Shown here: piece after piece, positions 2,027-25,332 of the stretch
How the letters are laid out: each line of letters starts with the position of its first letter
Numbering within the stretch: the first letter of the stretch is position 1
Origin: Leptogorgia sarmentosa
Taxonomy: Eukaryota
Assembly (NCBI GenBank): GCA_964658305.1
Contig: OZ210885.1
Span: 22,692,001-22,756,000, forward strand
DNA: 64,000 nt
Reading direction: 5' to 3'
Program-made: the position numbers and the translations under genes
The notes under the pieces: model-generated
What the model saw: the letters and a program-made list of their open reading frames with translations, nothing else
Database searches by the model: none
Told to the model about the DNA's origin: nothing

Positions 2027-4548
2027 TTGCACTATCCTTGGATTCCTAGTTCCTCTTCCTCCTCCAGTAGTGAGGATGAAGCTGGTCAAGTGTGCAAGAA
2101 AGTCTGCACGTCTGCTCCTGCTCCTCCGAGTCCGTCAAACGCTAGCATGTGGCCGGAGTTCCCGAGCCCTCCTACTCCAACTGCCACTCTTGAGGCCATG
2201 GAGGCTGACGTGGACAAGTGCTTGAGTGGTGATACGGTCGTGGACCCTATCGTCGCTCACGAATCTGCACCTGCTCTTGCCTCTACTGAGCCAGCCGGAT
2301 CCCCGGAGCGTATGGATGATGCTCCCGTGCCTTGTCAGGCTGATGTGGACGATGATAATGCTGCTTTGCAGGATCCTCCTGCAGTGGATGTCTCGTCCCA
2401 ACAGTCTGAGTCATCCCTTGATCTTTTCGAGGCACTGGCAGCCATCCATGAAGACTCACTGTCTCGTCTTTGCATGACGAGACTTTGCAACTCTACTCCC
2501 AAGCGTGCATCTTTGACATGCACGACTTTTAGTGATCAGCTTCGTGCTGATCAACTCGAGGAGCTCCTTCTTGGTGAACTGCCCACTTCTGGGACATCAG
2601 ATTCCGATGGTGAGTCTGATGTCCATTAACATCAACGGTCTTAACGACCGTGTTAAACGAACCGCCCTGGTGGATTGGTTAAAGTGTATGAAGGTGGATG
2701 GAACCTACGCACCCCGACTTGTCTGGAACAGTATATTAGGGAATGTGAATACCATCCCTCCTTATCGGATCATCAATACTTGCTGGTCAAGTTACAATTT
2801 GGTGATCGTATTGCTAGTGGTCCTGGAGTGTGGAAGTTTAATACTTCCCTCCTGGACGACAAAACCTATTGCGCCCTTGTCACTTCTTTTTGGTCCTTCT
2901 GGCAGGCCCATTATACACCTGAGGCCTTTCCCTCCATTTTGGATTGGTGGGACCAAGGGAAGTTCTACCTTTAGAGAAGTGACACGCAATTTTAGTCGGT
3001 CAAAGGAGCTGGACCGGCGTGAACATAAATCCTTTCTGACCAAGCAAATGCACAGACTGCAACGTCTTTTTGAAGCAGGGGATACCTCTGCATTCGCTAA
3101 GCTTTGTGAGGTACAGGAAGAGCTCCGAGGCATTGCTTTGCATGAAGCTAGAGGGGCACAAGTTCGTGCTCGCTGTCAGTGCGCTGAGGAGGGGGAAACT
3201 TCCTCCTCCTTTTTTCTCAATTTAGCCACTAAGCGACATGCAAAGCAGGAGATGCACTCCATTCGAGACCCTGACACCGGTTCCGTGCGCCACAACCCTT
3301 TTGAGATCTTAGACGTCTGGCGGCGGTATTACACCGGACTCTTTACTGCAGCACCCTGCGATACATCTGCTCAGGATGAGATGCTGTCAAAGCTGTCTCG
3401 TCGCCTTAGTAAGGAGGAACGTGCGTGTTGTGAGGGTCTTCTCTCTTTAGAGGAGTGCTTTACTGCCTTATCTGGTATGGCTAGAGGAAAGACTCCGGGT
3501 TCCGATGGCTTTCCCATGGAGTTTTACCTCAAGTTTTGCTCATGCCTTGGCGCTGATCTGGTTCGCGTCCTCAACGTTGCTTACGAGGCCGGCCAGCATT
3601 CCACCTCTCAGCTTCGAGGTCTGATCATAGTACTATACAAAAAGAATGACCGCTTGGAGACAAAGAACTGGCGGCCGATTAGTCTGCTCAATGCAGAGTA
3701 TAAAATAGCTACTCACGCTATTTCAGGTCGTCTCCTAGCCGTCATCGGGTCTGTTGTAGGGCCAGATTGGACATGCGGTGTTCCAGGCCGTACCATCTCA
3801 GAGAACCTCTTTCTGATCCGTGATCTAATTGAGTATGTGGAGCATGAGGACATCCCCCTCACTCTGCTCTCTTTGGATCAAGAAAAAGCATTTGATCGGG
3901 TCAATTGGGGTTTTCTTTTGCGGACTCTGGACACCATGAATTTTGGTCCGGATTTCTGCCGATGGGTAAAATTGTTTTACTCCGACGTTGAATCGGCTGT
4001 TGTTATTAATGGCTGGACCTTCTCCTTTTTTCGCCCTTCACGGGGTGTGCGGCAGGGTTGTCCACTTTCTCCACTATTGTACGTTCTGTCGATTGAGGTG
4101 TTAGCGGCTAACATCCGCTCTGCCCCAGGTATTACTGGTGTTTTTCTCCCTCAATCGCTGGAACAGTTTAAATGCTTTGGGTATGCCAACGATACGACGA
4201 TTGCTCCTACTATGGAAGAATCGATCGAGGCCACCTTCGAGGTATATTCTCAGTTTGAGAAAGCCTTGGGTGCTCGTCTGAATCGCGGCAAATCTAAGGG
4301 CATGTGGCTGGGCTCCTGGAAGCACCGTACCGATACCCCTCATGGTATCCAGTGGGTTAAAGAACTCCCATTACTTGGTGCAACCTTCAGTGCCGCTGAC
4401 TATAGTCAGCCGACCTTCGAGCCAGCCGTTTCCAAGTTGGAGAAACGTTTGTCAGACTGGTCTGGACGCAAACTGTCCTTTGAGGGCAAGGCCACAATTA
4501 TCAACACCTTGGCCTTGTCCCGGATATGGCACTTGTGTCACGTCCTTT
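2027..4548 (+). mobile_element. Degenerate Tx1/L1-clade LINE: ORF1 C-terminus (to 2629) and ORF2 from ATG 2607, with partly deleted APE endonuclease and an RT domain
   Basis: Motifs 'SININGLND', 'SDHQ', 'GPGVWKFNTSLL', 'EEGETSSSFF', 'KTPGSDG', 'WRPISLLN', 'LDQEKAFDRV', 'GVRQGCPLSP'. The catalytic YADD is mutated to YAND. Frameshifts present; homology stops abruptly at about 4548. Confidence 0.9.
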
Positions 4549-5025
4549 TAAAGAAAAAGAGCCAGGGAACGGATATGTTGGCCCACCGACCTCAATCCGC
4601 AACACGGAATGCAAAAAAAGAACCTAATAGACCACCGACCTTTGAGTTGTCCCCAAACAGACTCCTCGACAGGTCACACACAAGAAGAGCTATTACCCAC
4701 TAGCTAATAAAAACAATAAAAAACACTGTAATGGGCGGCCCTATGCTGTGTCGCGTGCTAACCGCGCAACAAACAGTAGGAAAGACTACCAATCGAGTTC
4801 CAAAGAACCAGAAAAGCAGTCCAAAAGAAAACGAATGGACTAACTGCTACCTTGACACCTATCCAAGTAGGCCGGCCAGACAGCGGGAAGACAGAACAAA
4901 GAAGAAGGCGTGTCTGCAAAAAGAACTGCAGCTAGTTGTAAACCTTGCGAGCAGAGTTACAGGTCCATGTTCCTGAGCATAGATCCTCTACTGCAAGGGT
5001 GAAGAACCTGACACGACAAAGACGG
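4549..5025 (-). mobile_element. Non-coding element with a Tx1-like 3'UTR, fused directly after U1 nt 17
   Basis: 4587-4636 resembles the 3'UTR of the Tx1 at 18617-18661 (cgacc(t)caatccg..aacc(t)aata..gaccacc). T-rich on the minus strand, no recognisable ORF, several stems. Confidence 0.55.
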
Positions 5026-5042
5026 TCGCGTCAGGTAAGTAT
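5026..5042 (-). ncRNA. U1: U1 snRNA 5' fragment (nt 1-17), disrupted gene copy
   Basis: Minus strand ATACTTACCTGACGCGA is identical to the U1 start at 17200-17184 and has the same upstream flank. Confidence 0.9.
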
Positions 5043-5478
5043 GACTTCATGGCGCATACAATTACCTTTTATACGCTGCAACCGTGAGGAATGCTTGTGG
5101 AATGAATGCATGGGGATGAGTTTGTCTGTCGATAGATGGATCGATTGATCTCTCGGACTGCACCGTGTTTGCACATTCCGACAATTCTCGACCCGCATAT
5201 TCAATATGAGTTTACAAAAAATTCCATGAATGTAAATCTCATGAACAGCGATGCTGTTTTGTTGGCCAACGAGCTACGCAAGACTATTATAACATGAATG
5301 TGTTAGGCTGCTCACCATGCAAGTATAAATTCGTGGTCGGTCATCCGCAATGAATGCGTCATATATACGTATTTCCTGCCAAATCGCGATGATCAATCTG
5401 TAAGGGCAAGAATAATTTGTTAGAGTTTTGAACTGATAGTGAGTGAGAAATTTTCCCCCAATAATGAAATTGGGGAAA
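5043..5478 (-). repeat. U2-to-U1 intergenic spacer of the snRNA array, containing the presumptive U1 promoter
   Basis: Highly similar to 17201-18114 once the insertion at about 17536-17979 is removed. Lies between a U2 3' end and a U1 start in both copies. Confidence 0.85.
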
Positions 5479-5650
5479 GTGGGCCGTACTCAGCGGTAGT
5501 GCAATACCGAGACAAAAATCCGATGGCCAAGGCGAAGCAAGCTTCAATCCTATGGCCGAGGTCCAAAAATCAGTTTAATTATATGAGTTAGGACATTGCC
5601 TAACATATCAGATATTAAGCTGATAAGAACAGATACTACCCTTGATCTTA
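5479..5650 (-). ncRNA. U2: U2 snRNA gene from nt 22 to the 3' end, 5' end displaced by a retroelement
   Basis: Minus strand TAAGATCAAG(G)GTAGTATCTGTTCTTATCAGCTTAATATCTGATA, Sm site GATTTTTGG, stem-loop IV with ATTGCAC loop. Confidence 0.95.
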
Positions 5651-7250
5651 TTTTGTTTAATAAATCGTTTTAACTATTTACAAAAGGCGTAACGTGCAAT
5701 GCCTGTAAGTCAAAGCTCTGGAAAGATCATGCTCGTCTAGTCCAGCTAGTGATACAAGTCTGGCTTGAAGCCCACAAAACTAAAAAACAAGTGCTCGGCA
5801 CCTGCTAGTCCTCATAACTAATGTAAGTTCTGTCCAGAATCGCACCAAAAATGGCTTCGCGAGTCTCATCGTTCAATCCTCGTATACACTCTGGGTGGGT
5901 AGAAGCAAAGAATACCTCGTAAGCGGCTAAGGTATCCGGTGGCAGGTTATCAATTGGGGCTTTCGCATCCGGCAGGGTTTCGGGAAAGTCCTTGTACTTG
6001 CTCCGGGCCTCCATGTATGTGCGCACGAGATTGTAACGGCTGTATGGAATATCGGTTGTCGTGGTACCAGGGGGAAGAACCGGTGTCAGGAGAGCGGAGG
6101 AAGACAAATCCACACAGTCACTGGGCCACTGGAGGGAACGAAGGTCTGCCACGGCCTGCTCATCCAGTTGGAGAGCTTTTTGCCAGGTGGGATGACGCAA
6201 CGATAGAGTTTTCTCATACTTTGGCCGTAACTCCGAAGGAATGCGGCGATACACAGCTGTAAACTGTTCATGATCAGCTGCAGTTGCTTTGGCACCCAAA
6301 ACATCATCCCGGACACATTCACGTTCGTAGACCTCATAAGGAGGAATATCCGTTCGATCCTTCTTTGAAGGATTTACAACATCGGAACCCGGAAACTGTC
6401 GCTTGCCAGTATCAGGGTTAACAGGTGTCGACGTCGAGGAAACATCATCCATTTGGAGATCAACCACAGAAGAATCACTTGCAGGAGATTCAGGTGACGG
6501 GGGATCAACCAATACGGAGCGAGGGTTGACATCAACAGCCGCGGGGCGCTTTTCAGAAGCTACAGCCGACGTCTGAACTGCCGGCTCACCAACAATGCGG
6601 GACGTAGGGGCTCCACTGGTCTTCTTGAAGGGGCTGTTTCGCGAGATATTACCGGTCTGCTCACATCGAAAGCATTGCTGCACTTGGCCACGGTAGAATA
6701 CGTTCACTGGATAGTTAGCAATGGTAAGACGTGAAGGAATCGGTTTGCGTATCTCCATTTTGACCAAGTATACTGATATACCGATGCCATGTACCAGTTC
6801 TCGACGTATCTTCAAGACGTCACCATAATCGGACAACCGAGACTTAATGGCATTTTCTGTGGTGCCATACATCACACAGTTTAATTTGATCCATTGGGTG
6901 TTGGGCGCCGGGACCAATTTGACAGGATGGGAGCGGAAGGTAAGACCAGAGTGCAGTAAAGCTTCAGCCTGGCGACTATCGGAACAATGCATCACGAACG
7001 TGGATGCATCAGATTGCATAACATTCTCAATTTTTTTGTTGAGGCGTGGGGGACTTGGCGAAGGAAGTCGGAGAGCATTTCCTTCAGAGTAACAGGAGTC
7101 GTTGCCGCAGTTTCCATAACGGCGTCAGGAATCGTGCCCACCAGGGCTCTTGCGGCGAAAGGGATAGCAGCCATATGACCGAAGACCACCAAAAGCGAGC
7201 AGGAACACGAAACTGCTCGCGACGCACGCGTGTTCTCCACGAATTTCTGG
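5651..7250 (-). mobile_element. ORF1-only (HAL1-like) Tx1-type retroelement with its 3' end joined to U2 nt 22; 5' boundary approximate
   Basis: One gag-like ORF, then about 155 nt of 3'UTR ending ATTAAACAAAA|TAAGATCAAG. No EN or RT sequence. Confidence 0.75.
5805..7174 (-). pseudogene. Tx1-type ORF1 (RRM-like region plus CCHC knuckle), one frameshift near 7030
   Basis: ATG at 7174 (MAAIPFAARALVG), shifting into ORF 7019-5805 with 'LSDYGDVLKIRRE', 'KPIPSRLTIANYPVNVFYRGQVQQCFRCEQTGNISRNSP' (decayed CX2CX4HX4C). Confidence 0.8.
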
Positions 7251-7702
7251 CGATTTTTTGGCAGGCGCACGTGGCGCTTTTCCCCGACCTACCTTGGTTC
7301 GCGACCGATTTGCGAATGGCAAATGACCAACATGCATTGAGTTGAACGAAGCGCGTCCGGTTGCGCTTCGGTTGGAGAAATGACGAGTGCATTTGAATTG
7401 GAAATGGTTGTTTAACATAAGTCTAGTATAAAATGCATGATCGGTTGGCAGCGCGTGTATCGATTGACTCATTCATTCATTCCGTGTGACGTGCCTACAA
7501 CAAGGTGTGAGTAATCCAATATTGATTGCATGGTTATGTATTAGTTTCGAATGACCGCGATGTAGTATCGAGTTACATGTGCGGCCTGCAGTGTGAAGAG
7601 CACATAGAATTGTTGTCCCTTCAATAAACTAGGATGCCGACCCGACGACATTTGTAATATCAGTTTTGAGTATTGGAAGTGAGAATAATAAGATGAGGAT
7701 AA

Positions 7703-7842
7703 AGGGGACGAGTGCGAACGCAGGTCCCCACTACCAGAAATTATACGTTCGAGTTACCCACATTAGGGGTAATCGCAGGAGTCAACCCAGTCGAAGTGCA
7801 ATGAAAGGGCCTCATCCTGAGAGGACCTCCTAGTTGATCAAG
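7703..7842 (-). ncRNA. U1: U1 snRNA 3' portion (nt 25-164 including the TSD copy), split by the MULE
   Basis: Minus strand has the SLII loop CATTGCACTTCG, SLIII, Sm site AATTTCTGG and SLIV GGGGACCTGCGTTCGCACTCGTCCCC. Joined to 17200-17167 it gives a U1 of about 164 nt. Confidence 0.95.
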
Positions 7843-8095
7843 GGTTGTGGTTAAAGGGGATGGACGAGAGGTAGGTGACCGTGTGAGGTCTGGGTCTAGT
7901 TGCGTGTTTGCTTCGTGTTCGTGGTACACGCGAGAACAGATTACTTTAGGAAAATTTGGAATTTTCCAAACATTCTCGCAGTTCAGATATTAATATAAAA
8001 TAAAGATGATTTTTCGGTAAATTCGTATCAGCAACAGCAGCTACAGCAATTTATAGTACTTTATGGAGACGCGGAAAGGTATATAATTATAATAT

Positions 8096-8780
8096 TAAGG
8101 ACTTATTAACCGAGTGTGAGGTCTGTACGGGAAAGTATTGCCTGAGGGTTTTCGTACAGACCGAGCGACGAAAGAGCGAGGTCTGTGCGTTAAAAACAGA
8201 AGGCAATACTTTCCCGTACAGACAGAGCAAATGAGGTTAATAAGGGATTTATTATATGGCTTTGTTCGATCACAATTTGTTCTGACATTGTAGAAAGAAC
8301 TAGAAAACACTTTCGATGCTAAAACGTTCAGCCGTATACACTGGCCTACTGAATGGCGGTTTCTGGCCGTTCACTGCTGTACAACAACAAAACAATAAAA
8401 ATACAACAAAGGAAAAAATTGAATAAAAAAATACAATGTAAATGTCGCGATAAACAACAAATGTTCGATGCGAAATGAAGCCATTAAGTGCTGCGAAAAC
8501 AATGTTCGCAACAGTTTTCGAACTGTTGTTTTGTTTGCCGTTATTTTCACTTTAAAACTCAGCATTTTGGATCGTGTGTTTTTCTGGGACAGCAAAATTC
8601 AATCGGGGATTGTTCTTCAACGTCACCGTACGGCATAATAAGATTTAGTTTCCTTAAAAATTTTATTTGTATAATAGTTTCACGAGCGGGCAAGATGACT
8701 TTCCTGAGCGGGCAAGATGACTTTTTCCGGACCGCTAATCAACCAATCAGCGTGCGGCATTTATGTCAGCCATATAATAA
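8096..8780. mobile_element. Non-autonomous element with a palindrome at one end (8096-8250), family uncertain
   Basis: Inverted arms gtctgtacgggaaagtattgcct / aggcaatactttcccgtacagac. Ends cagccatataataa. Flanked by the direct repeat TATAATAT at 8088-8095 and 8781-8788. Confidence 0.65.
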
Positions 8781-11278
8781 TATAATATATAAATGTATAT
8801 AATATGAACTTTATTATCGCTACGTGTATTTAAATTACAAAGCTGTTAGCCTGTTATGAGATTATGAAAGACTTGATTCTGATTGCAACATTTTGTTCAA
8901 TTAATGTATGTGGGAACATTGTGAGCACTTTGTTTTGAAGGCACTCATGCAAATGACTTCTCATTTGTGACTGGTCAAACATCACATTCTTTAAACAAAT
9001 CCCTTTTGCTAAGGCAAGAGCATTTGCAATTGCAAAAAGACCACAATCATTTTTTCCTTTCTGGTTCTGACACATATATGCCTTCACCCTAACTGGTTGA
9101 AGCCCATCTTTGTTCTGGCCATAAACGTGTAGGAGTTGACAAGCAAGCTTTGAAGAAATTGATGGCTCCATTGAGTCATACACTGTTATTCCTCCATTAG
9201 ATGCACTTGATACAACCCAGTGCATGTTGCCAGAATGGTGTATTTGGATACTTGTACCACACTCTGATGTTATTGGAAGAGATTTTCTACTGGCCACTTG
9301 TAATGAATTTGCTAAACCCTCTACATTTGGGAACTGTTGGCGTATAAGATCTTGTGCAGAGTTCATGATACTGTCATTTAGCCATGCATGACTGCTTTGT
9401 AATATCTTCTCGTCTTCCTTGTGTAGCCCTAGTGAGGAAACCCACAATGCATCACTACTGGATTTTTCTGCACTGCTGCCTTGATTTGTTAAGTCAATTA
9501 TGTTTTTTGATGGTTTTGTTGTGGATGAACTTGCAGGAATTTTTTTTATAGGAACATTTACTCTGTATTGCTTCCTCATAATTTCTGCATGACGCCCAAC
9601 TCGTTTGGCGAATGGATGACAAGGTTTACCATATCTTCTTTCAGGGAGGCAATCTTTAACATCTTTTTTCACTTTCTTAGCTTTTTTTGACATCTTCATA
9701 TTTTCCTCTCCCTTCATTGTAGATACTGCTAACTTTCTTTTCTTTCCCTTTTTCTGACAATCTTCATGTTCCAAAACAATGCCATCATCTGATTTCACCA
9801 GTTGTTCAGTTTCTTGAAACATCTGTTGAAGTTGACCTTCAAGTTTCTCAAGGCTTGGCACATCCTTCAGCAAATAAGTCAGTCCGTTCAACTTCTTTAA
9901 AATAACTCTACATTTAGCCTGCATGAGTTTTCTGGTTGTTTTTCTTCTCGGTGGAAGATCTTGTGTCTTACCATGATTGTTCAAATCTTTTTCAGCTTCA
10001 ATTGCACTTTCTGTGGTTGTACTAGTTGTGGTAATTTCTGATGCCAAGCTGGATTGCTTGAAGTGAAGAATAACAAAATACAAATTAGAATGTACTATTC
10101 TTCTATACTACTCTTCTGAATCCATTGACTGTTGGGTATGGTATAGGTTTGAAGTTCAATGCCATCTTAGATTTTTTGCCAGATGATTTGTAACTGACAG
10201 AAATAGAACATTATAATTAATTAAAGGGACAAGCTGATACCATTTTGTTCTAATAAGTGTGCTTGTAGTTTGTAAAGGAGTGCTGATATTACAAAACAAT
10301 GTACACTAACTGCATGAGAGCAAGGAAATTAAATTAAATCTGTAGCTGCCTTTTATTGACAGTTACTTTCAAAGACAATGCTGCAGTACTATAAACAAGT
10401 TTTAATAAAAATTACTCTCACTCTGATAATTACAGGTCAATGATATTCCTCTGTATTACATTGTAAATGCTGTTCATGCACAACTTACCTGTTCTTGTTC
10501 CTGATAATTGTCTGGGCAGTCTCCGGGTTTGGTTTAGACAGACCTCATCTAAATTTAATATGGAGAGGCTTTTGTACAGCGGACTCAAATCATTCCATCT
10601 TTGTTCTGTATTTTTGAAGACAGCACAAAAATGTTTGCACAGAAGCTTGGTTTTGTTCCAGTCTGCACACTGGCAACTTGGATGGCTTGATTCATCTCCA
10701 AAACTAACAGTGTACCACTTGCTGGGGGTTGTTGTACTCTGAACAGAGTATTTTCCTTCTCCCATTTTTCTGATATTCTCGCTTGTGTACCAGCAATCTT
10801 TCCATCTTTTCAAAACATGGGCTACAACAAATCTTGGTCTGTTCTTCAAAAACTCTGGAATATCTTCGTTGTACTTTCGATAGCCTGACGAATACTGGAC
10901 GTTCAATGAGACATATCTGTGAACAATGGTGGTGAATTTTAATTAGGAGATCTGATTAGAAGGACAGGGCTTGTCCTTTGTATGTTTTTCTAGTAGTTGC
11001 ACGGCTAAAGCCTTAGATCCTTTAAAACTGTTATAAAGATTTCCACAACGATGATTATGAATATGCACTTACTTCAAATAAGAGTCAGGCAGAAAGTTTT
11101 CAATGACGACATTCAGCATTTCACTCAGAGAGCAATTTTTGTAGCCAAGCAGATATTCATACTTTAATGCTTCGTTCTGACGCTCTACTCCATTATTTGT
11201 GTGGACTGCTATCTCCATGTCTTCGATACGGAATGCTTGTACCCATCTCTAAAGAATGCAAAATAGACGTCGAACGAA

Positions 11279-11384
11279 TTCAGACGTCGAACTTTCCATG
11301 CGCCGAACCTTATGTTAATGAGCTAAGTTCTTTGTTTGAGCTCATTTGCATTAGGTTCGGCACATGAAAAGTTCGACATCTGAA
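11279..11384. mobile_element. Small palindromic MITE in a MULE intron
   Basis: Inverted arms ttcagacgtcgaactttccatgcgccgaacct / aggttcggcacatgaaaagttcgacatctgaa. Confidence 0.7.
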
Positions 11385-11434
11385 CTAGGCTCTAGGCTTC
11401 AAAAGCTGCTGCATCAAGTAAATTGGAGAGTAAC

Positions 11435-12677
11435 CAGGGGCGGATCCAGGGTTAGACATGACCGGTTTGTAGGGGGGTCCGGGGGTATCCTCCCCCGGAA
11501 AATTTTTGAAAATTAGTGCTCTAAAACAGCATTTCCTGCTTTTTGGGGGGACTAGTTTGACAATATCAGCGATATGAAAATGCACCTTTTTAATACAATG
11601 CTCTGCCATTAAAATATTTGATCCGGTAGCGAGGCATGAATGATAATTGGTACGACACCACAGAATATAATTTAGTGCTCTTTGACGCATCGATATTAGT
11701 TATCAATAGAACAAGTACAGCTAGCTTCAATATAGACATAGTTGGCATTTCAGATCGACAGTTCTACATGTTATCAAACCAAATTTAAAATGAACAAACA
11801 GCTGAACAAAATTGTATTTAAGCTGGAAGGACTGCTTAGTCAGAATCACGCATTTCCTAATGCGATGTCGCCAACGCAATGACACAACAATCAAACAAAT
11901 CTATACAAATCTATGTGCATTTTTCGCGCTATAAGTACACTTACATATTAGGTCACAAGAAACGTTGACGCATCGATGTATGTTATGCTCATAGAACAGA
12001 TAAACACAATTATTTAATATATAATTTTAAACAAACCTTTAAAAGAAACAAGAACCCATGTAAATGCACAAAAGCTTTCATATAAACCATTTCCTCATTC
12101 ATAGTTGCCAACACAAATATTCTGCCACGCAAAATTATAAACATATTTCGCGCGTCCTCGAGTTCTGTTAACCCTCTTACCCAGTTTTTTTTCAGACTGC
12201 TCGATTCACAGGTTTATGACCGGTTTACATCCGCCGATGCGCTGCCGTTTAGCCAATCAAAAGGCGTAGCGACCGGTTTATTCTCATTAGGAAAACTCTG
12301 ACCACCGGTTTACACACAACTGCAGGCGTCTATATGACTATATTTGTTTCAGGTCGCGTTTACTGACCACAACCCACAACGATATATCAGCACTTGCTAC
12401 AACTACAGTATTTCGTAAGCGGAAACAAATGCGATAATCTTCAAGTGGGGTTGTACGTCAATAATTTAAAATCGCAAGGTCATATAAATGATGTAATCCA
12501 TGATCAAATTTCATGCTGCATTTAAATAGCATACGTAGTAAGTTATATATCACACTTTTTGTGAAAGAAATTGTCCTCAATTAAGGCCAAAAACAATATA
12601 ATAATTCAGAATTCTCTTTCTCTGGAAAATCTGACAGGTTTACATAAACCTGTTAAACCTGTCTGAATCCACCCCTG
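11435..12677. mobile_element. Non-autonomous hAT-type element with a 6-bp TSD
   Basis: Termini CAGGGGCGGATCCAG and CTGAATCCACCCCTG. Direct repeat AGTAAC at 11429-11434 and 12678-12683. Internal accggtt repeats. Confidence 0.75.
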
Positions 12678-15600
12678 AGTAACCGTAAATTCTTCGAAAC
12701 TTTTTTCGAATTGGGAGAAAGTTGAATATAGCTTTTACAGTCAATATAATATTACACAGCAGTGTAATAGCCTTCAACCCACTAGTCACAACCTTATTCT
12801 GCGCACATCATTATTATCCTTGCATATTTTTTTAGAAGACAAATTCATTTTGTATGAACAGGCATACAAAAAACCATCGATTTAGAAATATTTACCTTTG
12901 CACTTGGTAACCACTTTCCTTCTTGCCATCTTTGAAGTTTTAAGGACGATTTCCATATCGTACTTTCTTTCATAATTTTCACAGCGTCTTCAAACTGTTG
13001 TATTGTGGTTGAGTGAGCAATAGAGCAAAGGTAGCGCAGAATCTCATCTCTATCCTGACTTACACCATGGTCAGATTTGCTGATCGATTCACTCCAAGCT
13101 TTCTCTTGATGGAAGTCGCACAAAAAAACAGTGCTTTCTACAATGAATATTTTATATTTTGTTGTGACTAGGATTTTATTGATAATGCTACATGATAATG
13201 ATTCCCGTTCATGGCTCACAATTCCCGCCCATTTTTTCATGCAGACGCAATGTTAATGTCCGAGATCATGTTTTTTCATTGTACTGTATGTTAGGACTCC
13301 AAACAGTTCAACATGTTGTAAATGTGTCCATGTGAATAAGCATTGTTAGCAGTAAAGTGCATTAAAAAATATTCACTATAAAAAATGTATTCAATATTAT
13401 TGTAATTATGTTTAGAAATGTTTTAATGTGATTTCTTTAGAAATTGACCACACTAAACTTACCAGGAAATATAGATTCAATAGCCTGTATCTCCGCATCT
13501 GCAAAATCCACCATAAAGTTCTTTGGTTTCCACTCAGGGTTCCATTTTCGAAATATTTCTAGTGCTTCTTTGATACTTTCAATGTCTTCTTGTTGAATGA
13601 CGAAGAGACCAACAACTTGGTAACAAACATTAGTCTTTACACAAAGAAAAGAGGGGAAGTGCGTATCTTGTTGTTCGATAAGTGGCGTCAAGGAGGCACA
13701 TGTTTCCATATCTTGCAAGTAGACGGCGTTGTTCCTTAGATTGGTAACAAAACAGCAGATTTTTGTGGTGAATAGGAAATGTCATGGGCTTAATATTATC
13801 AATGTCTTCCTCAATGTTATCATCGCCCACCTCAGAAATGGAGGTATCTGAAGGTGTTGTGGCATCATTGGCATCATGAGTATGAGCTCTAAAGAAGAAC
13901 ATGTCGTCTGGTTTTTGTATTTTCCATGTAGTAACCAAGTGTTGAAGGTAATCTTGGTCGATATGAGTGAAACGTTTTTCTCTTTTAATTTTGCTGATTT
14001 CGTTTTTGATATCCTGCTTTCTAGGAAAATATCTTCTTCTTGTTCTGGGTGGAATAGCCTGGTGTTTGAAGAGGTCGTTTTACGTACTGTTCCAGGTATC
14101 TTTTCACATCACTTACTCTTCTAACACTCATCCCAATAAGTTCTGCTATTTTCTCTTTCAGAGCAGGATCTATTGACTCGCAAATACCTGCTGCCTGTAA
14201 GAGAATTTAGAAAAACGTAATTTTGATATACAAATACATGTATCGTGAATCACTAGCAATATTAATAAATGTATGCCTTGTGCAAGTTTATAGTAGGTTT
14301 TCATGTTGGTGGGGTAGCACATTTCGCTATAACTGTTCTATAAATAGTGCTCCACTAATCAATTCATTCTTTAGATTTCCTTCTTTTCACAAGTTTATGT
14401 GTCATGTTGATTTTGCACAGAGGTATAAGCAAAGTTGCCCTTTAGCTGAGAAACGGAACAACGACAATAAATAGGCAGATGTCTTTATAATTACCTCTCC
14501 AACTATGTGATTAGCATGCTCATTTGGCCCTGGCAATTTGATGTAAAATCTTGACTCCGGTTTAGCATTGCCCTCCTTAATAGATTCCCGCAAAATTTTA
14601 GAGCTTTGCTTCCGCAACCATGCTGTGTTACGTAGAACCTGTAACATACAAGTTATCAAGATTCTCTTATAGGTATAAAAATTAACACACGATGACGAAA
14701 CTGAGCCATTACAAGAGTCTAGTAATGGCAACCAGTTACACGATGAGGAACATTATAATGTATAGGAATAGCTCTTTTCTAATAAACATCAATTTTTGTT
14801 GTAATTTTTCATAAGAAATGACGAATTCGAATTAAACTATGGAATTTTTTTAATGTCATTATGGCTTACTTAATTTGAACAGAGAGGGACATAGCCTGAA
14901 ACTCTATCGTGATGGAGTCGATCAAGAAATGATCAGAAAAGTTGGCAAACTATTCGATTAAAAGATCTTTTTCTTTCTGTATAATTAGATATCATTACAT
15001 ATTTACCGTCATAAAACTGTACACTTTATATTCTCATAGTCATAGACGCTTTCTTACCTTATTCTCTGGAAACTTTAAAACATGCTTGATGGAGATAGTT
15101 GCTGGACAATCCTTCTTCTCTGTATTTTGTACGTGAAATCGTTTCTTGAAAGTCTTGTCGTAGCTGTGCTCTACAAACTGAATTTCGAAACACATACCAT
15201 ATTTAGCAAACATGAAAATTACTTTGAAAATTAAATGGATATACTTCATTCATTTCATACCTGGCTACTATCTGATTTTGACCTATTCGCTGCCTTTTCA
15301 GCTTTATGTTTGTCCTTTCCCTGATGACACCAATATATTTTCTCTCCATTCATGATAAAAGGAACTCCGTCAAATGGCAAGCTATGCTTGGTTCCGTTCG
15401 GTGACTCCCAACAAACGTTCTTGTTTGTTAAAATAGCATCTTCAATTAAAGTGCGAATGATAACTAAATTATATGATATAATAATGTGCATACCTCTTGT
15501 ATTACTAAAGCATGCATTGCTGCTGTAGACAACAAAGCGACTCATCGTTGCTTTTTCATACTCGTGTATTACTTGGTCGATCTCGTCAAGTGAACTCACA

Positions 15601-15860
15601 TATCCTTCCTTGTCTGAAAACCAAACTCCTCATCGACTACTATCCAGCAATTGCAGTTCCGCCATATTTTAATAAATTAAATTTCCCGCCAAATCAAGTC
15701 TACACGCGGGCTCACGATTGCAACTTTGAAATTCTTGAATTTGTAGGCTTTGCCGTTCGGATTAGTCGGTTTAAAGCGTATTTTCTTGTAAGTGGTTAAA
15801 ATGTCTTAAGGCCCGTTACATACGTCGAATTTTCTTCGCATCGAATACAGTCACGATTTA

Positions 15861-16044
15861 AGGGCTGTATTATTTTTAGAATTTATGAAATAGGGTTAAT
15901 TAGAATTAGCATGAGAGTTGGAATAAAGTTAGGACATGGTGTGAGGTTAGGATTACGGTTAAGATTAGGGTTAGCAATTTGAGTTAAGGTTAGCATTTTG
16001 GTTAGGATTATAAGACAAAAAGTCTGAAAATAGAAACAACCCCC
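15861..16044. repeat. MITE-like repeat with a degenerate (TTAGGG)-like interior
   Basis: Loose inverted ends gggctgtattatttttaga / tctgaaaatagaaacaacccc around ttagg and ttagc units. Confidence 0.45.
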
Positions 16045-17166
16045 AGAACGTGAAAGGTGTGGTTGCAGAACACAGTTTCTCCAAACCTCTCAAATGCTCA
16101 TTTGTTTGCTGGAGAGAGGGCGAGGTTAATAGATTCCTACAAGAAACCCATTCCCTCTGCCATGCATTCTCTAAGGTGTGTGTGTGTTGTGCTCAAAACT
16201 GGTAACTTTATTTTATATAAATTACACTTTTTCCAGAAAAGTACTAGTTGGTCAGTTTTTCCTGTTCACTATCCCTTGCTTGGAACTTAATCGAATTGGA
16301 ACTTCATGATAGTATTATAAGTCAAAAAAGTGAGATAGATCCTGCTTGTGCTGGGACGGATAGCCTGGTTCAGTATTCTACCAATGGCCTTATAACACAG
16401 AGAGTAGGCAATGCCTCTATGCATCTTTGATAGCTATTTTGCTCCAAACAAAAAAAGTTTTAAATTTCAATTACAGGGAATTAGACTAAGTTCTAAAAAT
16501 AATTTATGCAGTATATATGTGTTGATGTACAGAATCTGAATTGTGTACAAACACTTTTATGCCACACATCAATAACATTAGTGGAAAGGGATCAGATTTT
16601 TTGCACAAGTGGCTAATTGCTAAATAATATATGTCAACCTGTATCTCATACTGCTGTGTGTGTAAATCCAAGGGATTGTTTCCTTTGACATGTTTTTATA
16701 ATTTAATAAATGTGAATGATGAGAAGGTGGGCATTGGAATATAATTATCTGGGATCAAGTGCTGCTCCCTTGGAATATATCATTTTTCAAGGTAATTTTT
16801 TGAGGGATATTCTGGTTGGTAACTGATAAATAATTACATTGAAAGTTTAAGTTTTGTTTAATCTTTGCTGGCTAGAAGCCTGAGCAATTTTCAATTTCAA
16901 GCAGGCCAGGCTGGAGGGTAATTTTTAAGGTAGAAGGTCAAGTCAAGAAGAATATAAAGTGATTATCTCTTGAATATTGCTCAGTCAAAAACCACTAATT
17001 TGAGTGAAAAATCTGAACTGCGAAAATGTTTGGAAAATTCCAAATTTTGATTAATTTTCCTAAAGTAATCTGTTCTCGCGTGTACCACGAACACGAAGAA
17101 AACATGCAACTAGACCCAGACCTCACACAGTCACCCACCTCTCGTCCATCCCCTTTAACCACAACC

Positions 17167-17200
17167 GTTGATCAAGGTGCCTCTCGCGTCAGGTAAGTAT
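17167..17200 (-). ncRNA. U1: U1 snRNA 5' portion (nt 1-34)
   Basis: Minus strand ATACTTACCTGACGCGAGAGGCACCTTGATCAAC: the 5' splice-site-pairing sequence and the SLI 5' arm and loop. Confidence 0.95.
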
Positions 17201-17535
17201 GACTTCATGGTGCATATGATTACCTTTTATACGCTGCAACCGCGAGGAATGCTTGTGGAACGAATGCATGGGGATGAGTTTGTCGTCTGTCGATAGATGG
17301 ATCGATCGATCTCTCGGACTGCACCGTGTTTGCACGTTCCGACAATTCTCAACCCGCAAATTCAATACGAGTATACTAAAAATTCCATGAATGTAAATCT
17401 CGTGAACAGCGATGCTGCTTTGTTGGCCAACGAGCTACCCAAGACTATTATAACATGAATGTGTTAGGCTGTTTACCACCATGCAAGTATAATTCGTGGT
17501 CGCTCATCCGCACTGAATACGTCATATATACATAC

Positions 17536-17979
17536 ATATTATACCTCAAATTCAAATTGTCCAATGAAAACACAGCATTTGTACCACGTGATAGTGTGAT
17601 TTCTTACGGTATTTCACTCAAATTCATGATTTTGCAATCCAGCGTGGGATACTATAATATCCCCTGGCAGATACACCGTGGGATATTATAGTATCCCACG
17701 CTCACGCGTGGGCAACACGCGCCTAGCATAGCTAATTAGCTATGCAAAATGGCAGGCGAGCAAGACTCGGACGAAGAAATAAATAGACTTCTTGAAAACA
17801 ATGATGCAAAAATGTTTTGTTCGGTATAATATATCATTTATAGACCCTCCGCTCGGGGGATTCGGCGCAATATTTCCCTCAGTAATGATATTTTCCTCGG
17901 GGCAAAGCCCCTCGGAAAATATCATCACTTCGTGAAATATTACGCCGAATCCCCCTCGCTCCGGGTCTATAAATGATAA
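17536..17979. mobile_element. Non-autonomous element with a terminal palindrome, inserted in the U2-U1 spacer
   Basis: Absent from the other spacer copy (empty site near 5370). Palindrome of about 145 bp at 17831-17978 (tatcatttatagacc...ggtctataaatgata). Confidence 0.8.
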
Positions 17980-18114
17980 GTATCTCCTGCCAAATAAATG
18001 CCGGATCGCGGCGATGATCTACTACATTTACTGATGTAAAGGCAAGAATAATTTGTTAGAATTTTGAACTGATAGTGGGTGAGAAATCTTCCCCCAATAA
18101 TGAAATTGGGGGAA

Positions 18115-18281
18115 GTGGGCCGTACTCGGAGGTAGTGCAATACCGAGACAACCCATGGCCAGGGCGAAGCAAGCTTCAATCCCATGGCCGAGGTCCAAAA
18201 ATCAGTTTAATATATGAGTTAGGACATTGCCTAACATATCAGATATTAAGCTGATAAGAACAGATACTACACTTGATCTTA
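18115..18281 (-). ncRNA. U2: U2 snRNA gene from nt 22 to the 3' end, disrupted by a Tx1 LINE
   Basis: Minus strand TAAGATCAAGTGTAGTATCTGTTCTTATCAG with intact GTAGTA branch-point pairing sequence, Sm site and SLIII/IV. Confidence 0.95.
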
Positions 18282-21200
18282 TTTTGAGTTGAATGACGAC
18301 GGGCTTGTCGACTCCGACGGTGCAATGGAACCTGGACCCAAACAAGTCGCCGCACCCAGGGGGTCACTACAGGTGACGCGGATCGACGGGTCGTGAGCCC
18401 CTCCCCCGCGCCACGATGCAACCGTGAGTGGCCTGAACGATCCGGTGCTATCCACCTTCACGCCCAGGAATCCCTAACCTAATGATGATGAAATGGTCAG
18501 ATGATGATGTTAAACTAGACGATTACAACATGAGCAGCAACCCCTAGATCAAAACCTGTGCAACCCACTCGGAACAAGTCCAAGGGAACCACAGGGCAAA
18601 AATTGAAACAAACAGACGACCCAATCCGATACAGGCAGTACAACCAATAAAGGCGACCACCAGATCTTCATGGGAGGACAAAGCGAACCAACATTAAAGA
18701 TAAAAACAAATGTGCTGTCCAGTCCAAAGACAACTATAAGAAAACAAACACGTCCAGAAGGCGACGACAGTACAACCACTGAAGGCGACCGTCATGCCCC
18801 TAGACCACACTATTTAAGAGAAAAGGGAGGAGAGAAAGGAGGAAGGAAGAGAAGAGAATCAAGTGATGAAATCACGTGTGAATCTGATCCAGTCCTGCTC
18901 TGTTAGCGTGCCTATAAGTCCGTCTGCCAGCCACTCACAAACAAACCGGTGCCGAGGGCAGTGGTGCTTGTGCATACGCACCAGAAAGCGGAAGGTGGTC
19001 TTAGCTTTCTTCAAAGTGGTGGTGACATCTGGGTTGACATGATCAAACCGACAGGTGTTGCGGTTAAGCCAGATGTGGTGACGGAGCACCCCAATCAGAG
19101 CGGAGAAAACACTGAACACCTCGCAGTGTGCAGCGAACCCAAACAGAATTTGATCTGTCGGCAACGCAGGAGCGGACAGACAAAATTTTAGGTACTGGCC
19201 ACGAAACCAAGACCAGAGAGAGACAGAGAACGGACAACTTGTAAAGAGGTGTAAAAGTGTTTCCTGTTCCCCACAGAAACACAACTCGCATACCAAAGCG
19301 GACCAGTCTGTTAGCTGTTGGTAATATGCCATGGAAATTCAACCAGGCCGTATCCTGAACCGACCGGACAAACCGCCAAAGGTGAAGGCTCGCCCACGCT
19401 GCTTGCCACGGTACATTGATGCCCCAGTTGCGATACTTAGCGACGGAACGGTGCTCGGTAGTCGAAGAGCGGCGAAGAAGGGAGTATGCCGTACTGGCAG
19501 TTAGCTCTTCAAAGGGAAGTAATTGCCCTGAAGGACGAGGGACAACCCATACGCCCTGATCGTTTTGGCCATGCAGAGTGACCCACGCGGAAAGTACACC
19601 CCTATAACATAGGGGAAGTTTTTTAATTAAATAGGCTGGAATCGGACCCGAGCCAAAACGTCAGCAACCGACTGACCAAACACTAGCTCAATATGGTGGG
19701 GAAAAAAGCAGGACCATGGGTGCATGTGGTTAGCAAAAAAGCGACGGAGCCAAACGGCACGAATGGACAAGATCTTATTTGAGATGTCTACAATGTTAAA
19801 CCCACCGTCTCCGATGGGCTGGACCACGGATGTACGTGCCATCCATTCGCGCTTTTTTCCCCAAACAAATGGAAAAATTATTTTATTGATTTAAGCTATG
19901 GTCATTTTTGGCAGGTAAAAAATTGTTGCTTGGTACCAGAAGAGCGACAGCCCCAAGGTATTTACAATAAGCGCTCGGCCCCTAAAAGACAACTGACGCT
20001 GTTTCCATATCGACAATTGCTGTTCTAAATTCGCTACCAAAGTGTCCCAGTCGGCAGATTCGACATTGGCAATCCGACACCCCAACACAGTTATGGCGTC
20101 ACTGGACCAATTGAGCTGTACGGGTAGGTCAACTCTATTCTTCCAAGATCCAAAAAGAAGACCATGATATATATAGCTTTTAGCTATATTCAATTTGCAC
20201 CTGACGCTCGTTCATATTTTTCAAAAAGGGAAAAGAGCGACTGCAGGGCCTGCTCGGAGCGAACAATAATTGAAGTGTCGTCGGCATACTGAAAAATTGA
20301 TGGTCTCTCCATTGAACATTTGGAAACCGTCAATATTGAGGTCCTTTTTTATTGCACACGAAATGGTTTCCGCCACAATTATATATAGCAAGGGAGAAAG
20401 AGGACACCCTTGACGAACGCCGCGAGTATTACCACATTACAAAACCATTAACAAAGATGCGAGAAAAAATGTTGGTGTACAGGAGTTTGACCCATGCACA
20501 AAAGGACGGACCAAAATGCATCTTTTCCAAAGTGCGTAACATAAACCCCCAGTCAACTCGATCAAAGGCCTTCTCTTGATCTAATGATATTATGGCACCA
20601 CCAGTATTGTGGCGATTGCAAAAATTGACTACATCTTGTAATGCCCTGATGTTCAGCCCGGAAAACTGTCCAGGAACACCACAAGCTTGAGATTCTGAGA
20701 TAACAGAAGATAGCACTACTTTAAGGCGATTGGTAAGTACCTTAGATAAAATTTTATAATCTGTGCATAAAAGGGAAATGGGCCGCCAATTCTTGACATC
20801 CAAGCGGTCATTTTTCTTAAAGAGGAGGGAGATTAACCCAGTTCGCTGTGAAAAAGAAAGGGCACCTTGTGCCATGCAATCATTATATACTGCAACTAGA
20901 TCAGGTCCCAAAATGTCCCAGAAGGATTGGTAAAACTCGTATGACAAACGATCAAGACCCGGAGACTTATTGCGCTTGAAGGAATTCAATGCTCGCTGGC
21001 ATTCAGTTAATGTGACCTCTCCTTCACAAAGCTGGGCTTCTTGAGAAGAAAGAGATTTATCTAAACTATTGATGAAAAACGACTCATCCGGGTGAGATAA
21101 AAGAGATGATGAAAAAAGTTGAACATAAAAAAGGCACCAAATTTGTAAAATCGCAGAAACAGATCTTACTATAGTACCGCGTGCATCGCGAATGCCTGTA

Positions 21201-21324
21201 AATAAACGGCGTGATGCCCTCGCTTTCTCCTGTCGGAAGAAAAAGGCAGAAGAAGTTTCACCTTCCTCGGCCCACTGCTCCTTGCCTCGAATGCGCGCAC
21301 CTTCCGCTGCATAGAGATGTTCTA
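18282..21324 (-). mobile_element. Tx1-clade LINE (ORF2 RT, CCHC finger and about 580-nt 3'UTR) with its 3' end at U2 nt 22; 5' part lost at the Tc1-like insertion
   Basis: Motifs 'WAEEGETSSAFF', 'KSPGLD', 'WRPISLLCTDYKI', 'LDQEKAFDRV', QYADDT near 20285, 'CFCGEQETLLHLFTSCP'. Stop at 18859. Ends TCAACTCAAAA|TAAGATCAAG. Frameshifted. Confidence 0.92.
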
Positions 21325-22170
21325 CAGGGTGTATAAAAAAAAAGTTTACTGATGAAAAACATTCTCTAAACTAACGAGCGCTCAAAATTTCCAAAAACGT
21401 TCGGTTAGCATAGGTAGTTTAACACCCTCTGGTATATCTAGCACTGAGTTTATTTTAAAAACAAACTTTTTTAGATTGGGAAATGTGGTTACTGAAAGGC
21501 CCATTAAAAACGGCTTGCACGGAAAAAATAAGTTTTCTTCACGCAATTTGATTTAATCGGTTGAAAATCCTCCTCCACATCATGACTATGGATAACAGCT
21601 GGTTAAACAGAACAAAAAAAAATCGCACTAGTCTAAATCTAATTTAATTTCTGATACTGCAAATACCAACGAAAAATTTGTTGGCTCAAGCGGGATTTGA
21701 ACTCCCAGCTTCGGGTTTCTAGAATCTAGACTATCTATCTGTCTAAGTCGTTAAAGCTTGTCTTGGAGGGCAACGCAATGTTTCAAATTCATTCTATCAT
21801 CCTCAGCGATATGAAAAGCTGATTTCATTTATAATCTCATTTTAATGAACAAAAGTGAGAGTTTAAATCCCACCACAATAACTTTGATTTTATCAACTGT
21901 GTTAAAAAACAGACAAACATAATTACCATCATGGTGATCATTGACCTCTTCCTCCAGTATTGCAACGTTGCTGATTATACTTGATTCTATAATTAAATAA
22001 TTTTAAAACCCATTTCATTTTCATAGACGAAGGTCAAAATTCAAATCACACAAACTGACAAACATAATTACCATCATGGTGATCATTGACCTCACCCTCA
22101 TCAATTGCAGTGTTGTTGCCTGGATTTGATTCTATAATTAAACATTTTAAAACCAATTAGACAACAAGGT

Positions 22171-22346
22171 CGTCGTTAATAATCTTTATCTTTATACAAC
22201 AACTTGGAGGAAAACGAGAAAATGTTCGTCGTTAATAATCTTTATCTTTATACAACAACTTGGAGGAAAAGGAGAAAATGTTCGTAGTTAATAATCTTTA
22301 TCTTTATACAACAACTTGGAGGAAAAGGAGAAAATGTTCGTAGTTA
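22171..22346 (+). repeat. 56-bp tandem repeat, about 3.1 copies
   Basis: Unit cgtcgttaataatctttatctttatacaacaacttggaggaaaacgagaaaatgtt at 22171, 22227 and 22283. Confidence 0.9.
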
Positions 22347-22653
22347 TTTAGGTTCACGTTGTTTTTGACAGGGGAAAATTGATTATCAATCGAACACGTC
22401 GACACAATTGAATGCATTCATTCAGGCTTGAGTAAGTGTGACGTCCGAATTCAAAAGGTCCACCAACACCATTCGCCGAGGATGCTTTCGAGCAAAGCGG
22501 TCAATGTTAAGCCTGTTTCTCACTGAACATAAGCGCAAGCATAAGTATACGCATAAGCGCAACGCCGTGAGGACAGTCAAAACACAAGCATAAGTCTGTA
22601 CGCATGTGTAGATGGTTAAATAGAACCCATTCCCCATAAAATGTTCGTCCAAG

Positions 22654-24017: not shown

Positions 24018-25332
24018 AACTAGTGCTTTGAGGATTACACAACATAATAACATATATACATAATAGATACTGTATATGCCCACACACTTATCTCATTAAT
24101 TACATCAGTACCTTGTTCTTATCAAAAGCAAATATCATGTAAAGATGTACTACTTGCTCTTGAAGTCAAATGTTTGTTTATAAAATATATATACAAAGAA
24201 GTACAGAACTTGGTAGTTGTTTTATTAAAACACCGATAAATATATAAATAATTACAGTAACAGCGTTAGTTCCACCACTTGCTTAAAACAAGGACATGGT
24301 ACAAGAATTTCAAGTAACACCCAAATAACAGAATTTCAAAAAAATCTGATTAACACCAATGAATATAAAATTAATTGCACTAACAGTATATGTCACCAGT
24401 TCCTTAAATCAAGGACGAGGTCCAAGAATTTCAGCTTGCACTAACTGAATTTTAATTAGCAGAATTTCAACAAAATCTCTTTTATAAAAAATGAGACCAG
24501 TGTCAACACTAGTGTGAGCTACCAGATTATCTGTGCCGGAAAAATGTAGCCTGGATGAAATGTTGAAGGGTCATTTACAGTTTGCATTTCCGTTAAACCA
24601 AGTGATGGAACATGTGTAGTTTGGCTGGAATGTCTTGTCGATTCCTCAGCATGTGACATGTGGCCAGTTGTTTCTCCGAAAAACATGTTAGTTGGATTAT
24701 TTTGGCGTCTTTTTAATATATGAGAATACATCGCATTACTTAGCTGCATTTTCACCGTAACTTGTTCATTCTGAGGCAGTATGCGCAACTGACAAGCAAT
24801 CAGTTCTCCAAAAATGCTTTCCTCGTCTCTTTCAGATGATTTTTTGGCCTTTTGCTCAAGTCTACTACCAATGGTCTTCATAAACTCAAGCTCTGCTTTA
24901 TTTATATCTTCTTTGGTTTTACGTTTCAAATACTTTGCTCGACCTGTTACACCGGATTTCACAGGCATCTCTTGTGTCTGAGTTTTCTACACCTGGGGTC
25001 GTACTAATTACCGACAACAACCGTCAACAACCGACAATTACCGACAACAAGCTCACAATTACCGACAACAAGCTGAAAAATACATACTTTCATTGTATTC
25101 TTATAATTATTTGGTTGTTTTTGAGGAAACCCAGAAATTCGACAGATTTTGTCAAACTAGAATACATAACAATAGATACTCCGGAAAATGATAACATTTT
25201 GTCTGAAATATTTATTTCTACGTTTCGACTAGATTGTAGTCATCATCAAGAAATGAATGATGATGATAATGTTACGTTTTGTTATTGTTATTGTCAAACT
25301 AGGTTGAGTTAAAAGACTTCGCGATTAAAGAT

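Follow-up and report, generated by a model that had tools for sequence, protein, structure and literature searches.

We analyzed a 64,000-nucleotide (nt) stretch of the Leptogorgia sarmentosa genome, here referred to as the window, to ask what broke the small nuclear RNA (snRNA) genes of the linked U1-U2 array that it carries. An earlier note on this DNA had described four genes in the order U2-U1-U2-U1 on the minus strand, each cut by a different element, and had regarded the locus as a decayed piece of an array that hosts a community of snRNA-specialized elements. Rfam matches and self-comparison of the window bore out the gene order. The U1 and U2 models gave two U2 matches and one U1 match in the window, all above the gathering score and all on the minus strand, to which the features below also belong unless stated otherwise: U2 copy a (142.9 bits, 18110-18293), U2 copy b (106.5 bits, 5474-5690) and U1 copy a (89.1 bits, 7703-7878). 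The U1 genes start at 17200 and 5042. The U2-to-U1 spacer is indeed duplicated with 92-94% identity (5026-5371 corresponds to 17184-17534 and 5399-5655 to 18035-18286), and self-comparison places a spacer carrying the U1 promoter at both 17201-18109 (spacer 1) and 5043-5473 (spacer 2). Spacer 1 exceeds spacer 2 by about 480 nt and contains two palindromic MITE-like pieces (17641-17702 and 17832-17978). The U1-to-U2 spacer (7461-7702) likely holds a putative U2 promoter, as is weakly suggested by a motif at 7538-7524 that is similar to the upstream motif of U1 and equally spaced, the in-register alignment being equalled by 13 of 300 shuffles; the bases at 7464-7461 are possibly a remnant of U2 nt 1-4, again on a weak signal.

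Together with comparable arrays in the coral Acropora pruinosa (PMC8167085), the Rfam matches and the duplicated spacer support the view that this is a decayed piece of a linked U1-U2 array. As described for A. pruinosa (PMC8167085), U1 and U2 genes alternate with spacers in a tandem repeat; that repeat, however, includes 5S, whereas neither a 5S nor a tRNA gene was detected in our window. The words "retrotransposon" and "transposon" are absent from the main text of that paper. Of the four genes, only U1 copy a retains both halves around an insert (nt 1-34 at 17167-17200 and nt 25-164 at 7703-7842), and therefore interruption by an element is demonstrated for this gene alone. It is well supported for the two U2 copies, which retain the 3′ junction only, and is not shown for the last U1 gene, which retains the 5′ junction only: U1 copy b consists of nt 1-17 (5026-5042), and self-comparison found its 3′ part nowhere in the window.

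The most informative point is that both U2 genes are broken at nt 21/22, away from the site used by the Keno and Utopia elements. Both copies lack nt 1-21 and run from nt 22 to the end of the gene, copy a at 18110-18281 and copy b at 5474-5650 with 4% mismatches to copy a, and no U2 5′ end was found anywhere in the 64,000 nt. Upstream of them lie a Tx1 LINE (element 1) and a 1.8-kb ORF1-only element (element 3), which are mutually unrelated, and U2 resumes at nt 22 directly past the short A tail of each. Their 3′ untranslated regions (UTRs) gave no mutual match in the window self-comparison. The Keno/Utopia site at nt 39 is unbroken in both copies (18264 and 5633).

Element 1 (18282-21322) is the 3′ part of a Tx1-clade LINE, as judged from domain matches, and residues 360-1183 of protein P0057 map to 21322-18862. 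Its ORF2 spans from before the reverse transcriptase (RT) to the C terminus, interrupted by stops and frameshifts, and is followed by a 577-nt T-rich 3′ UTR that ends in A4. The 5′ part is cut off at approximately 21323, so that the APE endonuclease part and ORF1 are missing from the surviving copy. RT and zf-RVT domains were found in element 1 by a domain search of the window, and close full-length ORF2 relatives (71-79% identity) carry APE, RT and zf-RVT; a more distant named match is "Transposon TX1 149 kDa protein." In a quick tree, element 1 fell into a group of 36 rows (SH-aLRT 99) made up of unnamed relatives.

Element 3 (5651-7460, with a presumed 5′ end) is an ORF1-only non-LTR element of about 1.8 kb. 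Its ORF1 runs from an ATG at 7174 to a stop at 5805 with one frameshift near 7004-7049 and encodes two RRMs, a decayed CCHC knuckle and a twin helical C-terminal domain; the stop is followed by a 154-nt 3′ UTR, an A4 tail and then U2. No RT or endonuclease was found in element 3, which thus shares with HAL1 a single ORF1, the lack of both enzymes and a 3′ tail of its own. A candidate U2 5′ remnant just ahead of the ORF1 start was rejected, since the best match to the U2 5′ piece in the window was equalled by 61 of 500 shuffles.

Relatives of element 3 supplied the evidence from beyond the window. Among 69 ORF1-family proteins, 12 carry an upstream extension of at least 76 amino acids, and in 11 of these the extension is compatible with U2 from nt 1 to nt 24-29. 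The 11 proteins fall into five clusters but derive from a small number of assemblies and thus do not count as independent cases. The extension of P0179 (93 amino acids) starts at the junction but fails the strict U2 test, and P0202 provides one further U2-compatible extension among 150 representatives. As a control, none of 120 ORF2 proteins had a U2-compatible upstream peptide, the best reaching 13 nt. Because 11 of the 12 long extensions spell U2 in this way, the proteins indicate that the ORF1 family occupies U2 genes at the nt-22 spot in other genomes too. Moreover, the extensions run on upstream past U2 nt 1, where their flanks are similar, and therefore look like genomic U2 genes rather than retrocopied heads. 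No single copy with both U2 junctions was seen; the window supplies the 3′ junctions, and the relatives supply the 5′ junctions through protein only.

The twin helical domain is specific to the family: it was present in all 41 near relatives but in only 2 of 73 distant ORF1s. Its predicted structure (pLDDT 87, pTM 0.84) found no counterpart in the PDB; it gave no Foldseek match at an E value of 0.001, and the best structural Z score among 48,161 chains was 3.8 (rmsd of 4.6 over 125 aligned residues), which does not prove the fold to be new. A search with the ORF1 alignment returned no related locus in metagenome, prokaryote or viral contigs.

For the LINE family, the window offers one junction, the 5′ end of element 1 being lost, and the remaining evidence is an indirect co-location with the ORF1 family. 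With contigs of up to 10 kb and eight fish and turtle rows left out, 4 of 17 close ORF2 relatives but none of 25 distant ones lie on contigs of the same size in base pairs as ORF1-family contigs (Fisher P = 0.021), equal size being a fingerprint only. One distant ORF2 lies on a contig of 127,101 bp, nearly the size of an ORF1 contig of 127,099 bp, and counting it brings the control to 1 of 25. The shared contigs often hold many copies.

The insert in U1 copy a is of a different kind. The insertion of a MULE reported in the earlier note is real, with corrected bounds: a 9,324-bp element at 7843-17166, flanked by target site duplications (TSDs) 10 bp long, which occupy 7833-7842 and 17167-17176, each corresponding to U1 nt 25-34. 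Its terminal inverted repeats (TIRs) of about 150 bp are 96% alike between the two ends. The transposase is split by introns and matches ZSWIM RNaseH-like (E value of 4 × 10−9), SWIM (4 × 10−5) and MULE (2 × 10−4, below the curated cutoff) domains; the element also carries a weak C48-like protease ORF and a nested 1.24-kb element at 11436-12676 with an 8-bp TSD. MuDR/MULE elements have long TIRs and TSDs of 9 to 11 bp, and the present element combines both features with a MULE-type transposase bearing a SWIM finger. Removal of the MULE restores a U1 of 164 nt that folds with the expected arms. Next to U1 copy b lies element 4 (4547-5025), a 479-nt noncoding piece with a base composition like that of a Tx1 3′ UTR and an A4 end, which matched no RNA family. 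Its 3′ end adjoins a T run within an unrelated plus-strand Tx1 ORF2 (2717-4547) that is truncated at element 4 and about 40% identical to the relatives of element 1.

It might be argued that all four elements are snRNA specialists, with U1 loop I as the target of the MULE and the stretch near U1 nt 11-17 as that of a LINE or SINE. The clean insertion of the MULE, with its perfect TSD and a rebuilt gene that folds as expected, would agree with this, and an imperfect 8-bp direct repeat that borders element 4 and overlaps U1 nt 11-17 could reflect a TSD with a subsequent deletion. Nevertheless, we regard such a foursome as unlikely. The window contains no second copy of either the MULE or element 4, unspecialized inserts are also present in the spacer and within the MULE itself, and the 3′ end of element 4 lies in the ORF2 of another LINE, not in U1. 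The core of the MULE TSD is a palindrome, and palindromic sites are often favored by DNA transposons anywhere. The published target-specific DNA transposons of U1 are the Dada elements; Dada-U1 resembles the MULE as a DNA transposon within a U1 gene, but Dada is described as having no TIRs, TSDs of 6 to 7 bp and another U1 site (PMC3706591), in contrast to the 150-bp TIRs and 10-bp TSD found here. Hence, of the proposed community of specialists, the two U2-joined elements are supported, having hit the same base twice and having U2 5′ pieces upstream of ORF1 relatives elsewhere, while the noncoding piece and the MULE, of which one copy was seen, in a nearly palindromic site and in surroundings where unspecialized elements have landed as well, are candidates only. 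Given these unequal breaks, with nt 22 hit twice, the MULE a single case and the last U1 reduced to 17 nt with no U1 beyond, the locus likely reveals a novel target site in U2, used by a LINE plus passenger, rather than four proven snRNA specialists.

The repeated break could also stem from a single old event at nt 22 that was copied with the array unit, the different upstream sequences arriving later without any targeting. The last five bases before U2 are identical at both junctions and the two array units are just 4-6% apart, as such copying would predict. U2 copies can also lose their 5′ part without such elements, because six other U2-like matches in metagenome contigs lacked a normal 5′ end, all of them unrelated and devoid of an A tail; viral and prokaryote contigs matched neither the junction nor the U2 patterns. 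We nevertheless consider this origin highly improbable: each element is unbroken from the ORF stop through the 3′ UTR to the A tail at the junction, and the matching U2 5′ piece in ORF1 relatives of other genomes is beyond the reach of one local accident. A decidedly unlikely explanation, in our assessment, is that element 3, rather than belonging to a passenger family of its own, arose from the autonomous U2-targeting LINE by internal deletion. Co-occurrence of ORF1 and ORF2 relatives on the same long contigs is expected also from one element, and the ORF1 of element 1 itself is absent from the window. However, of the 32 ORF1 matches, 14 were on contigs below 10 kb, 11 of them at 1.6-1.9 kb and none at 5-7 kb, the size of ORF2-bearing units, while 15 near full-length ORF2 relatives sit on contigs of 3.8-6.6 kb. 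The two 3′ UTRs are also unrelated except for a short motif, and the 32-63% identity within the family, together with its conserved extra domain, points to long independent survival of an ORF1-only family.

We therefore favor the reading that the locus is a defunct piece of a linked U1-U2 array whose two U2 copies became joined at nt 22, one to a Tx1 LINE and the other to an ORF1-only element, and we consider it probable that this came about through targeting by the LINE endonuclease, with the ORF1-only element borrowing the LINE enzymes. The APE endonuclease would nick the bottom strand at U2 nt 21/22, the short A tail would then serve the RT for priming, and nt 22 to 24-27 would be duplicated by a cut of the top strand 3 to 6 nt further on. 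The U2 promoter may drive transcription of both U2-joined elements, and the ORF1-only family would be mobilized in trans, by analogy with HAL1 or HeT-A. Insertion of the MULE into U1 and disappearance of the last U1 gene would most likely have come later, as untargeted damage to a piece of array that was already in decay.

Among known systems, the closest is Keno, a U2-specific, APE-type lineage of the Tx1 clade reported from fish, frog, lancelet and Hydra (PMC4494074; PMC4640811; PMC6136364). Like Keno, element 1 is a Tx1-type APE-RT LINE in a U2 gene and in the orientation of the gene, with RT and zf-RVT in the copy itself and APE in close relatives; the 3′ flank of Keno, however, begins at U2 nt 39, and behind the present elements U2 resumes at nt 22, 17 nt further upstream. 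U2 arrays with Utopia likewise hold several families, often with the 5′ U2 fragment missing upstream of a copy, but Utopia uses a restriction-like endonuclease and the nt-39 site (PMC4640811), in contrast to the APE of the close full-length relatives and the other site found here. Element 3 resembles HAL1 (half-L1) and HeT-A, non-autonomous non-LTR elements encoding only ORF1/Gag, of which HeT-A is site-restricted and has a Gag that guides partners to telomeres (PMC5753468; PMC5537684); it differs in its Tx1-type ORF1 (two RRMs plus CCHC), its twin helical domain and its target, a single U2 base. The SIDEs of R2 likewise ride at the site of an autonomous partner in a multicopy RNA gene, but they are described as short internal deletions that keep the ends of the partner (PMC3414825), whereas element 3 retains a conserved protein and has a 3′ UTR of its own. 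Neither a U2 nt-22 site nor an ORF1-only U2 element turned up in the literature searched; such a family could be listed in Repbase, in Kojima and Fujiwara 2004, or in figures or supplements of PMC4494074 and PMC4640811, which lay outside the search.

A second U2 site for an APE-type LINE would provide a natural pair for studying how Tx1 endonucleases change target. An ORF1-only element that has persisted for long while fixed on a single base in an RNA gene would parallel HeT-A at an internal site. Its twin helical domain offers a handle on how passengers capture the reverse transcriptase of a partner, and use as targeted insertion tools is a further reason for interest in site-specific LINEs. 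More tentatively, and with slightly more doubt than confidence, we propose that anthozoans harbor a third independent U2-specific lineage (nt 21/22), in which an autonomous Tx1 LINE is accompanied by an ORF1-only passenger of long standing and the additional helical domain of the passenger, with no matched fold, may steer or hijack the partner as in HeT-A; the boldest form of this proposal adds a U1-specific, TIR-bearing MULE in the same arrays.

Finally, no tail folded better than its shuffles. Both U2-joined tails do share, 45-50 nt from the end, a 7-mer of the U1A-type hairpin (approximately 0.5% chance each, noticed post hoc), and the hairpin itself is predicted for the tail of element 3 only (closing pair of 0.63-0.82 versus ≤0.01). 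We keep the common 7-mer as an unexplained observation.

The minus strand of the window carries, in this order, a U2 gene (copy a, 18281-18110; Rfam, 142.9 bits), a spacer, a U1 gene split by a MULE (copy a, 17200-7703; 89.1 bits on the 3′ piece), a spacer, a second U2 gene (copy b, 5650-5474; 106.5 bits), a spacer, and a 17-nt U1 remnant (copy b, 5042-5026). The scores of both U2 pieces and the U1 3′ piece exceed the gathering score, and comparison of the window with itself revealed that the array unit is present twice at 92-94% identity, with divergence of 4% between the U2 copies and 6% between the U1 promoters. These data confirmed the U2-U1-U2-U1 order with a duplicated spacer proposed in an earlier note. 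The array as such is ordinary, because linked U1-U2 repeats were already described in Acropora pruinosa (PMC8167085). Spacer 1 contains two palindromic MITE-like pieces (17641-17702 and 17832-17978), which are absent from spacer 2 and gave weak Rfam microRNA matches under the gathering score. The remainder of the window is for the most part transposon debris; further stretches of it, at 53525-55024 (plus strand), 41842-42708 (plus), 43463-45306 (minus), and 58334-59236 (plus), carry remnants of a PIF1-like helicase, Helicase_C, DUF6589, and an integrase core.

Nucleotides 1 to 21 of U2 are missing from both copies, and each of them starts at nt 22 directly behind an AAAA tail, provided that the U2 5′ end is where we take it to be. 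The sequences upstream of the two junctions are unrelated to each other in the window self-comparison. Copy a is joined to element 1, a Tx1 LINE of which the 3′ portion is present: 21322-18862 corresponds to residues 360-1183 of P0057, a full ORF2, and a 577-nt UTR comes next. Copy b is joined to element 3, which consists of ORF1 and then a 154-nt UTR. In the published U2-specific families Keno and Utopia, U2 resumes at nt 39 (PMC4640811; PMC6136364), whereas this site is uninterrupted in both window copies. Searches of published article text yielded neither an element at U2 nt 22 nor an ORF1-only element of snRNA genes. The two UTRs have in common a 7-mer identical to that of U1 loop II and U2 loop IV (18320-18326 and 5694-5700, minus strand), located 45-50 nt before the end and preceded by a 4-mer common to both tails; a hairpin presenting it is predicted in the element 3 tail only. 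This 7-mer may be a recognition signal. Three U2 copies on unrelated metagenome contigs (L002:169-361, L003:1-158, and L005:2013-2201) are without the normal 5′ end up to approximately nt 20 and adjoin other sequence with no A tail, but the search pattern itself selects 5′-less U2 and hence yields no rate.

Element 3 belongs to a separate family, with 32 relatives at 32-63% identity. Fourteen of these lie on contigs of <10 kb, 11 of them 1.6-1.9 kb long and none 5-7 kb long; 15 near full-length close ORF2 relatives lie on contigs of 3.8-6.6 kb. For an intact relative, the predicted structure comprises two RRMs, for which IMP3 RRM1-2 was the best Foldseek match (E value of 2e-5), a CCHC knuckle (present in 26/29 family members), a linker, and a C-terminal helical region. 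The latter consists of two 60-residue units in tandem (hhalign, 94.9%), occurs in 41/41 near relatives versus 2/73 distant ORF1s, and is predicted with a confident fold, for which a PDB search returned no match. The window copy is dead: its reading frame shifts near 7004-7049 and its CCHC knuckle is damaged. The U2 5′ piece is absent ahead of it. A U1 promoter could be aligned in register with 7635-7465, but weakly, 13 of 300 shuffles being equally good; the alignment ends at a possible, likewise weak U2 nt 1-4. This would leave element 3 a 5′ UTR of about 290 nt, a weak estimate inside the range from the relatives' extensions.

These N-terminal protein extensions, which stem from gene calls starting far upstream, allowed us to read the 5′ flank of the ORF1 relatives. 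In 11 of 69 ORF1-family proteins the extension is exactly compatible with U2 from nt 1 through nt 24-29 (peptides include HRFSAFWL and ASLLGLLAK), whereas none of 120 ORF2 control proteins exceeded 13 nt. Among extensions of ≥76 amino acids, 11/12 were U2 compatible; the twelfth, P0179, begins at the junction and failed the strict U2 test. One further case, P0202, was found among 150 representatives. The U2-compatible proteins form five clusters at 90% identity, and their contigs (650,706, 1,847,268, 24,078, 2,305, 1,873, 7,954, and 127,099 bp) may represent only a few genomes. Upstream of U2 nt 1, the extensions run on into similar flank, as would be expected of a genomic U2 gene. Since the 5′ flank reaches U2 nt 24-29 and the 3′ junction lies at nt 22, we infer a target duplication of approximately 3-6 bp, no single copy displaying both ends. 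The 650,706-bp contig size is common to at least eight ORF1-family and four ORF2 copies and probably represents a large live U2 array; the P0006, P0010, P0013, P0057, and P0058 clusters include contigs of 650,706 and 1,847,268 bp.

APE, RT, and zf-RVT domains are all present in the full ORF2 relatives nearest to element 1 (71-79% identity). Among LINE relatives that carry a name, those of highest identity come from Paramuricea clavata (61%) and Stylophora pistillata (46%), which makes an anthozoan host probable. In a quick tree of 119 rows, element 1 fell into a 36-row group (SH-aLRT, 99). On long contigs, with those of ≤10 kb and eight fish and turtle rows left out, 4/17 close versus 0/25 distant ORF2 relatives had a contig size in common with the ORF1 family (p = 0.021), the latter becoming 1/25 once a 2-bp size difference was tolerated. 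Cluster members, expanded for close clusters only, added three further common contig sizes, with many copies per contig. This pattern, although indirect, fits with the LINE and ORF1-only families inhabiting the same arrays. The 5′ part of element 1 is cut off by 21323-29379, whose TA-flanked inverted ends, 8 kb apart, are presumably Tc1/mariner-like and enclose pieces of Harbinger-like, OTU/PHD, and hAT type; beyond the far end, the LINE has no continuation.

Most likely, the array unit, about 1 kb long, houses a Tx1 lineage that would use its endonuclease to nick U2 at nt 21/22 and would have its RNA made from the U2 promoter. For R2, cotranscription with the target is established (PMC4494074). 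The ORF1-only family would use the enzymes of this lineage in trans. The 16.8-kb array piece is truncated on either side, at 4547 and at 21323, and would afterwards have gathered untargeted elements.

The earlier note had regarded all four genes as broken by snRNA-specialised elements, which is supported for the two U2-joined ones, given the same nt 22 and the U2 flank in relatives, but not for the elements at the U1 copies. Behind U1 copy b, which stops at nt 17, lies element 4, a 479-nt non-coding piece. Its base make-up is that of the element 1 UTR, it is bordered by an imperfect 8-bp repeat, and its AAAA end meets a T run in the ORF2 of another Tx1 LINE, an ORF2 that is truncated at this junction. 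Element 4 could have inserted into that other LINE, with a deletion extending to U1, or into U1, with a deletion afterwards; the sequence is compatible with both readings. The MULE (9,324 bp; TIRs of ~150 bp) is flanked by a perfect 10-bp TSD corresponding to U1 nt 25-34, and its removal rebuilds a 164-nt U1. Chance suffices to explain this site, because the TSD core is palindromic, the window has only a single copy, and further elements inserted in the spacer and within the MULE. The element nested in the MULE (11436-12676) is non-coding, 1.24 kb long, and has short TIRs and a TSD of 8 bp, and a 417-amino-acid MULE ORF (8854-10107, minus strand) gave a weak Ulp1/C48 protease match (E value of 0.06).
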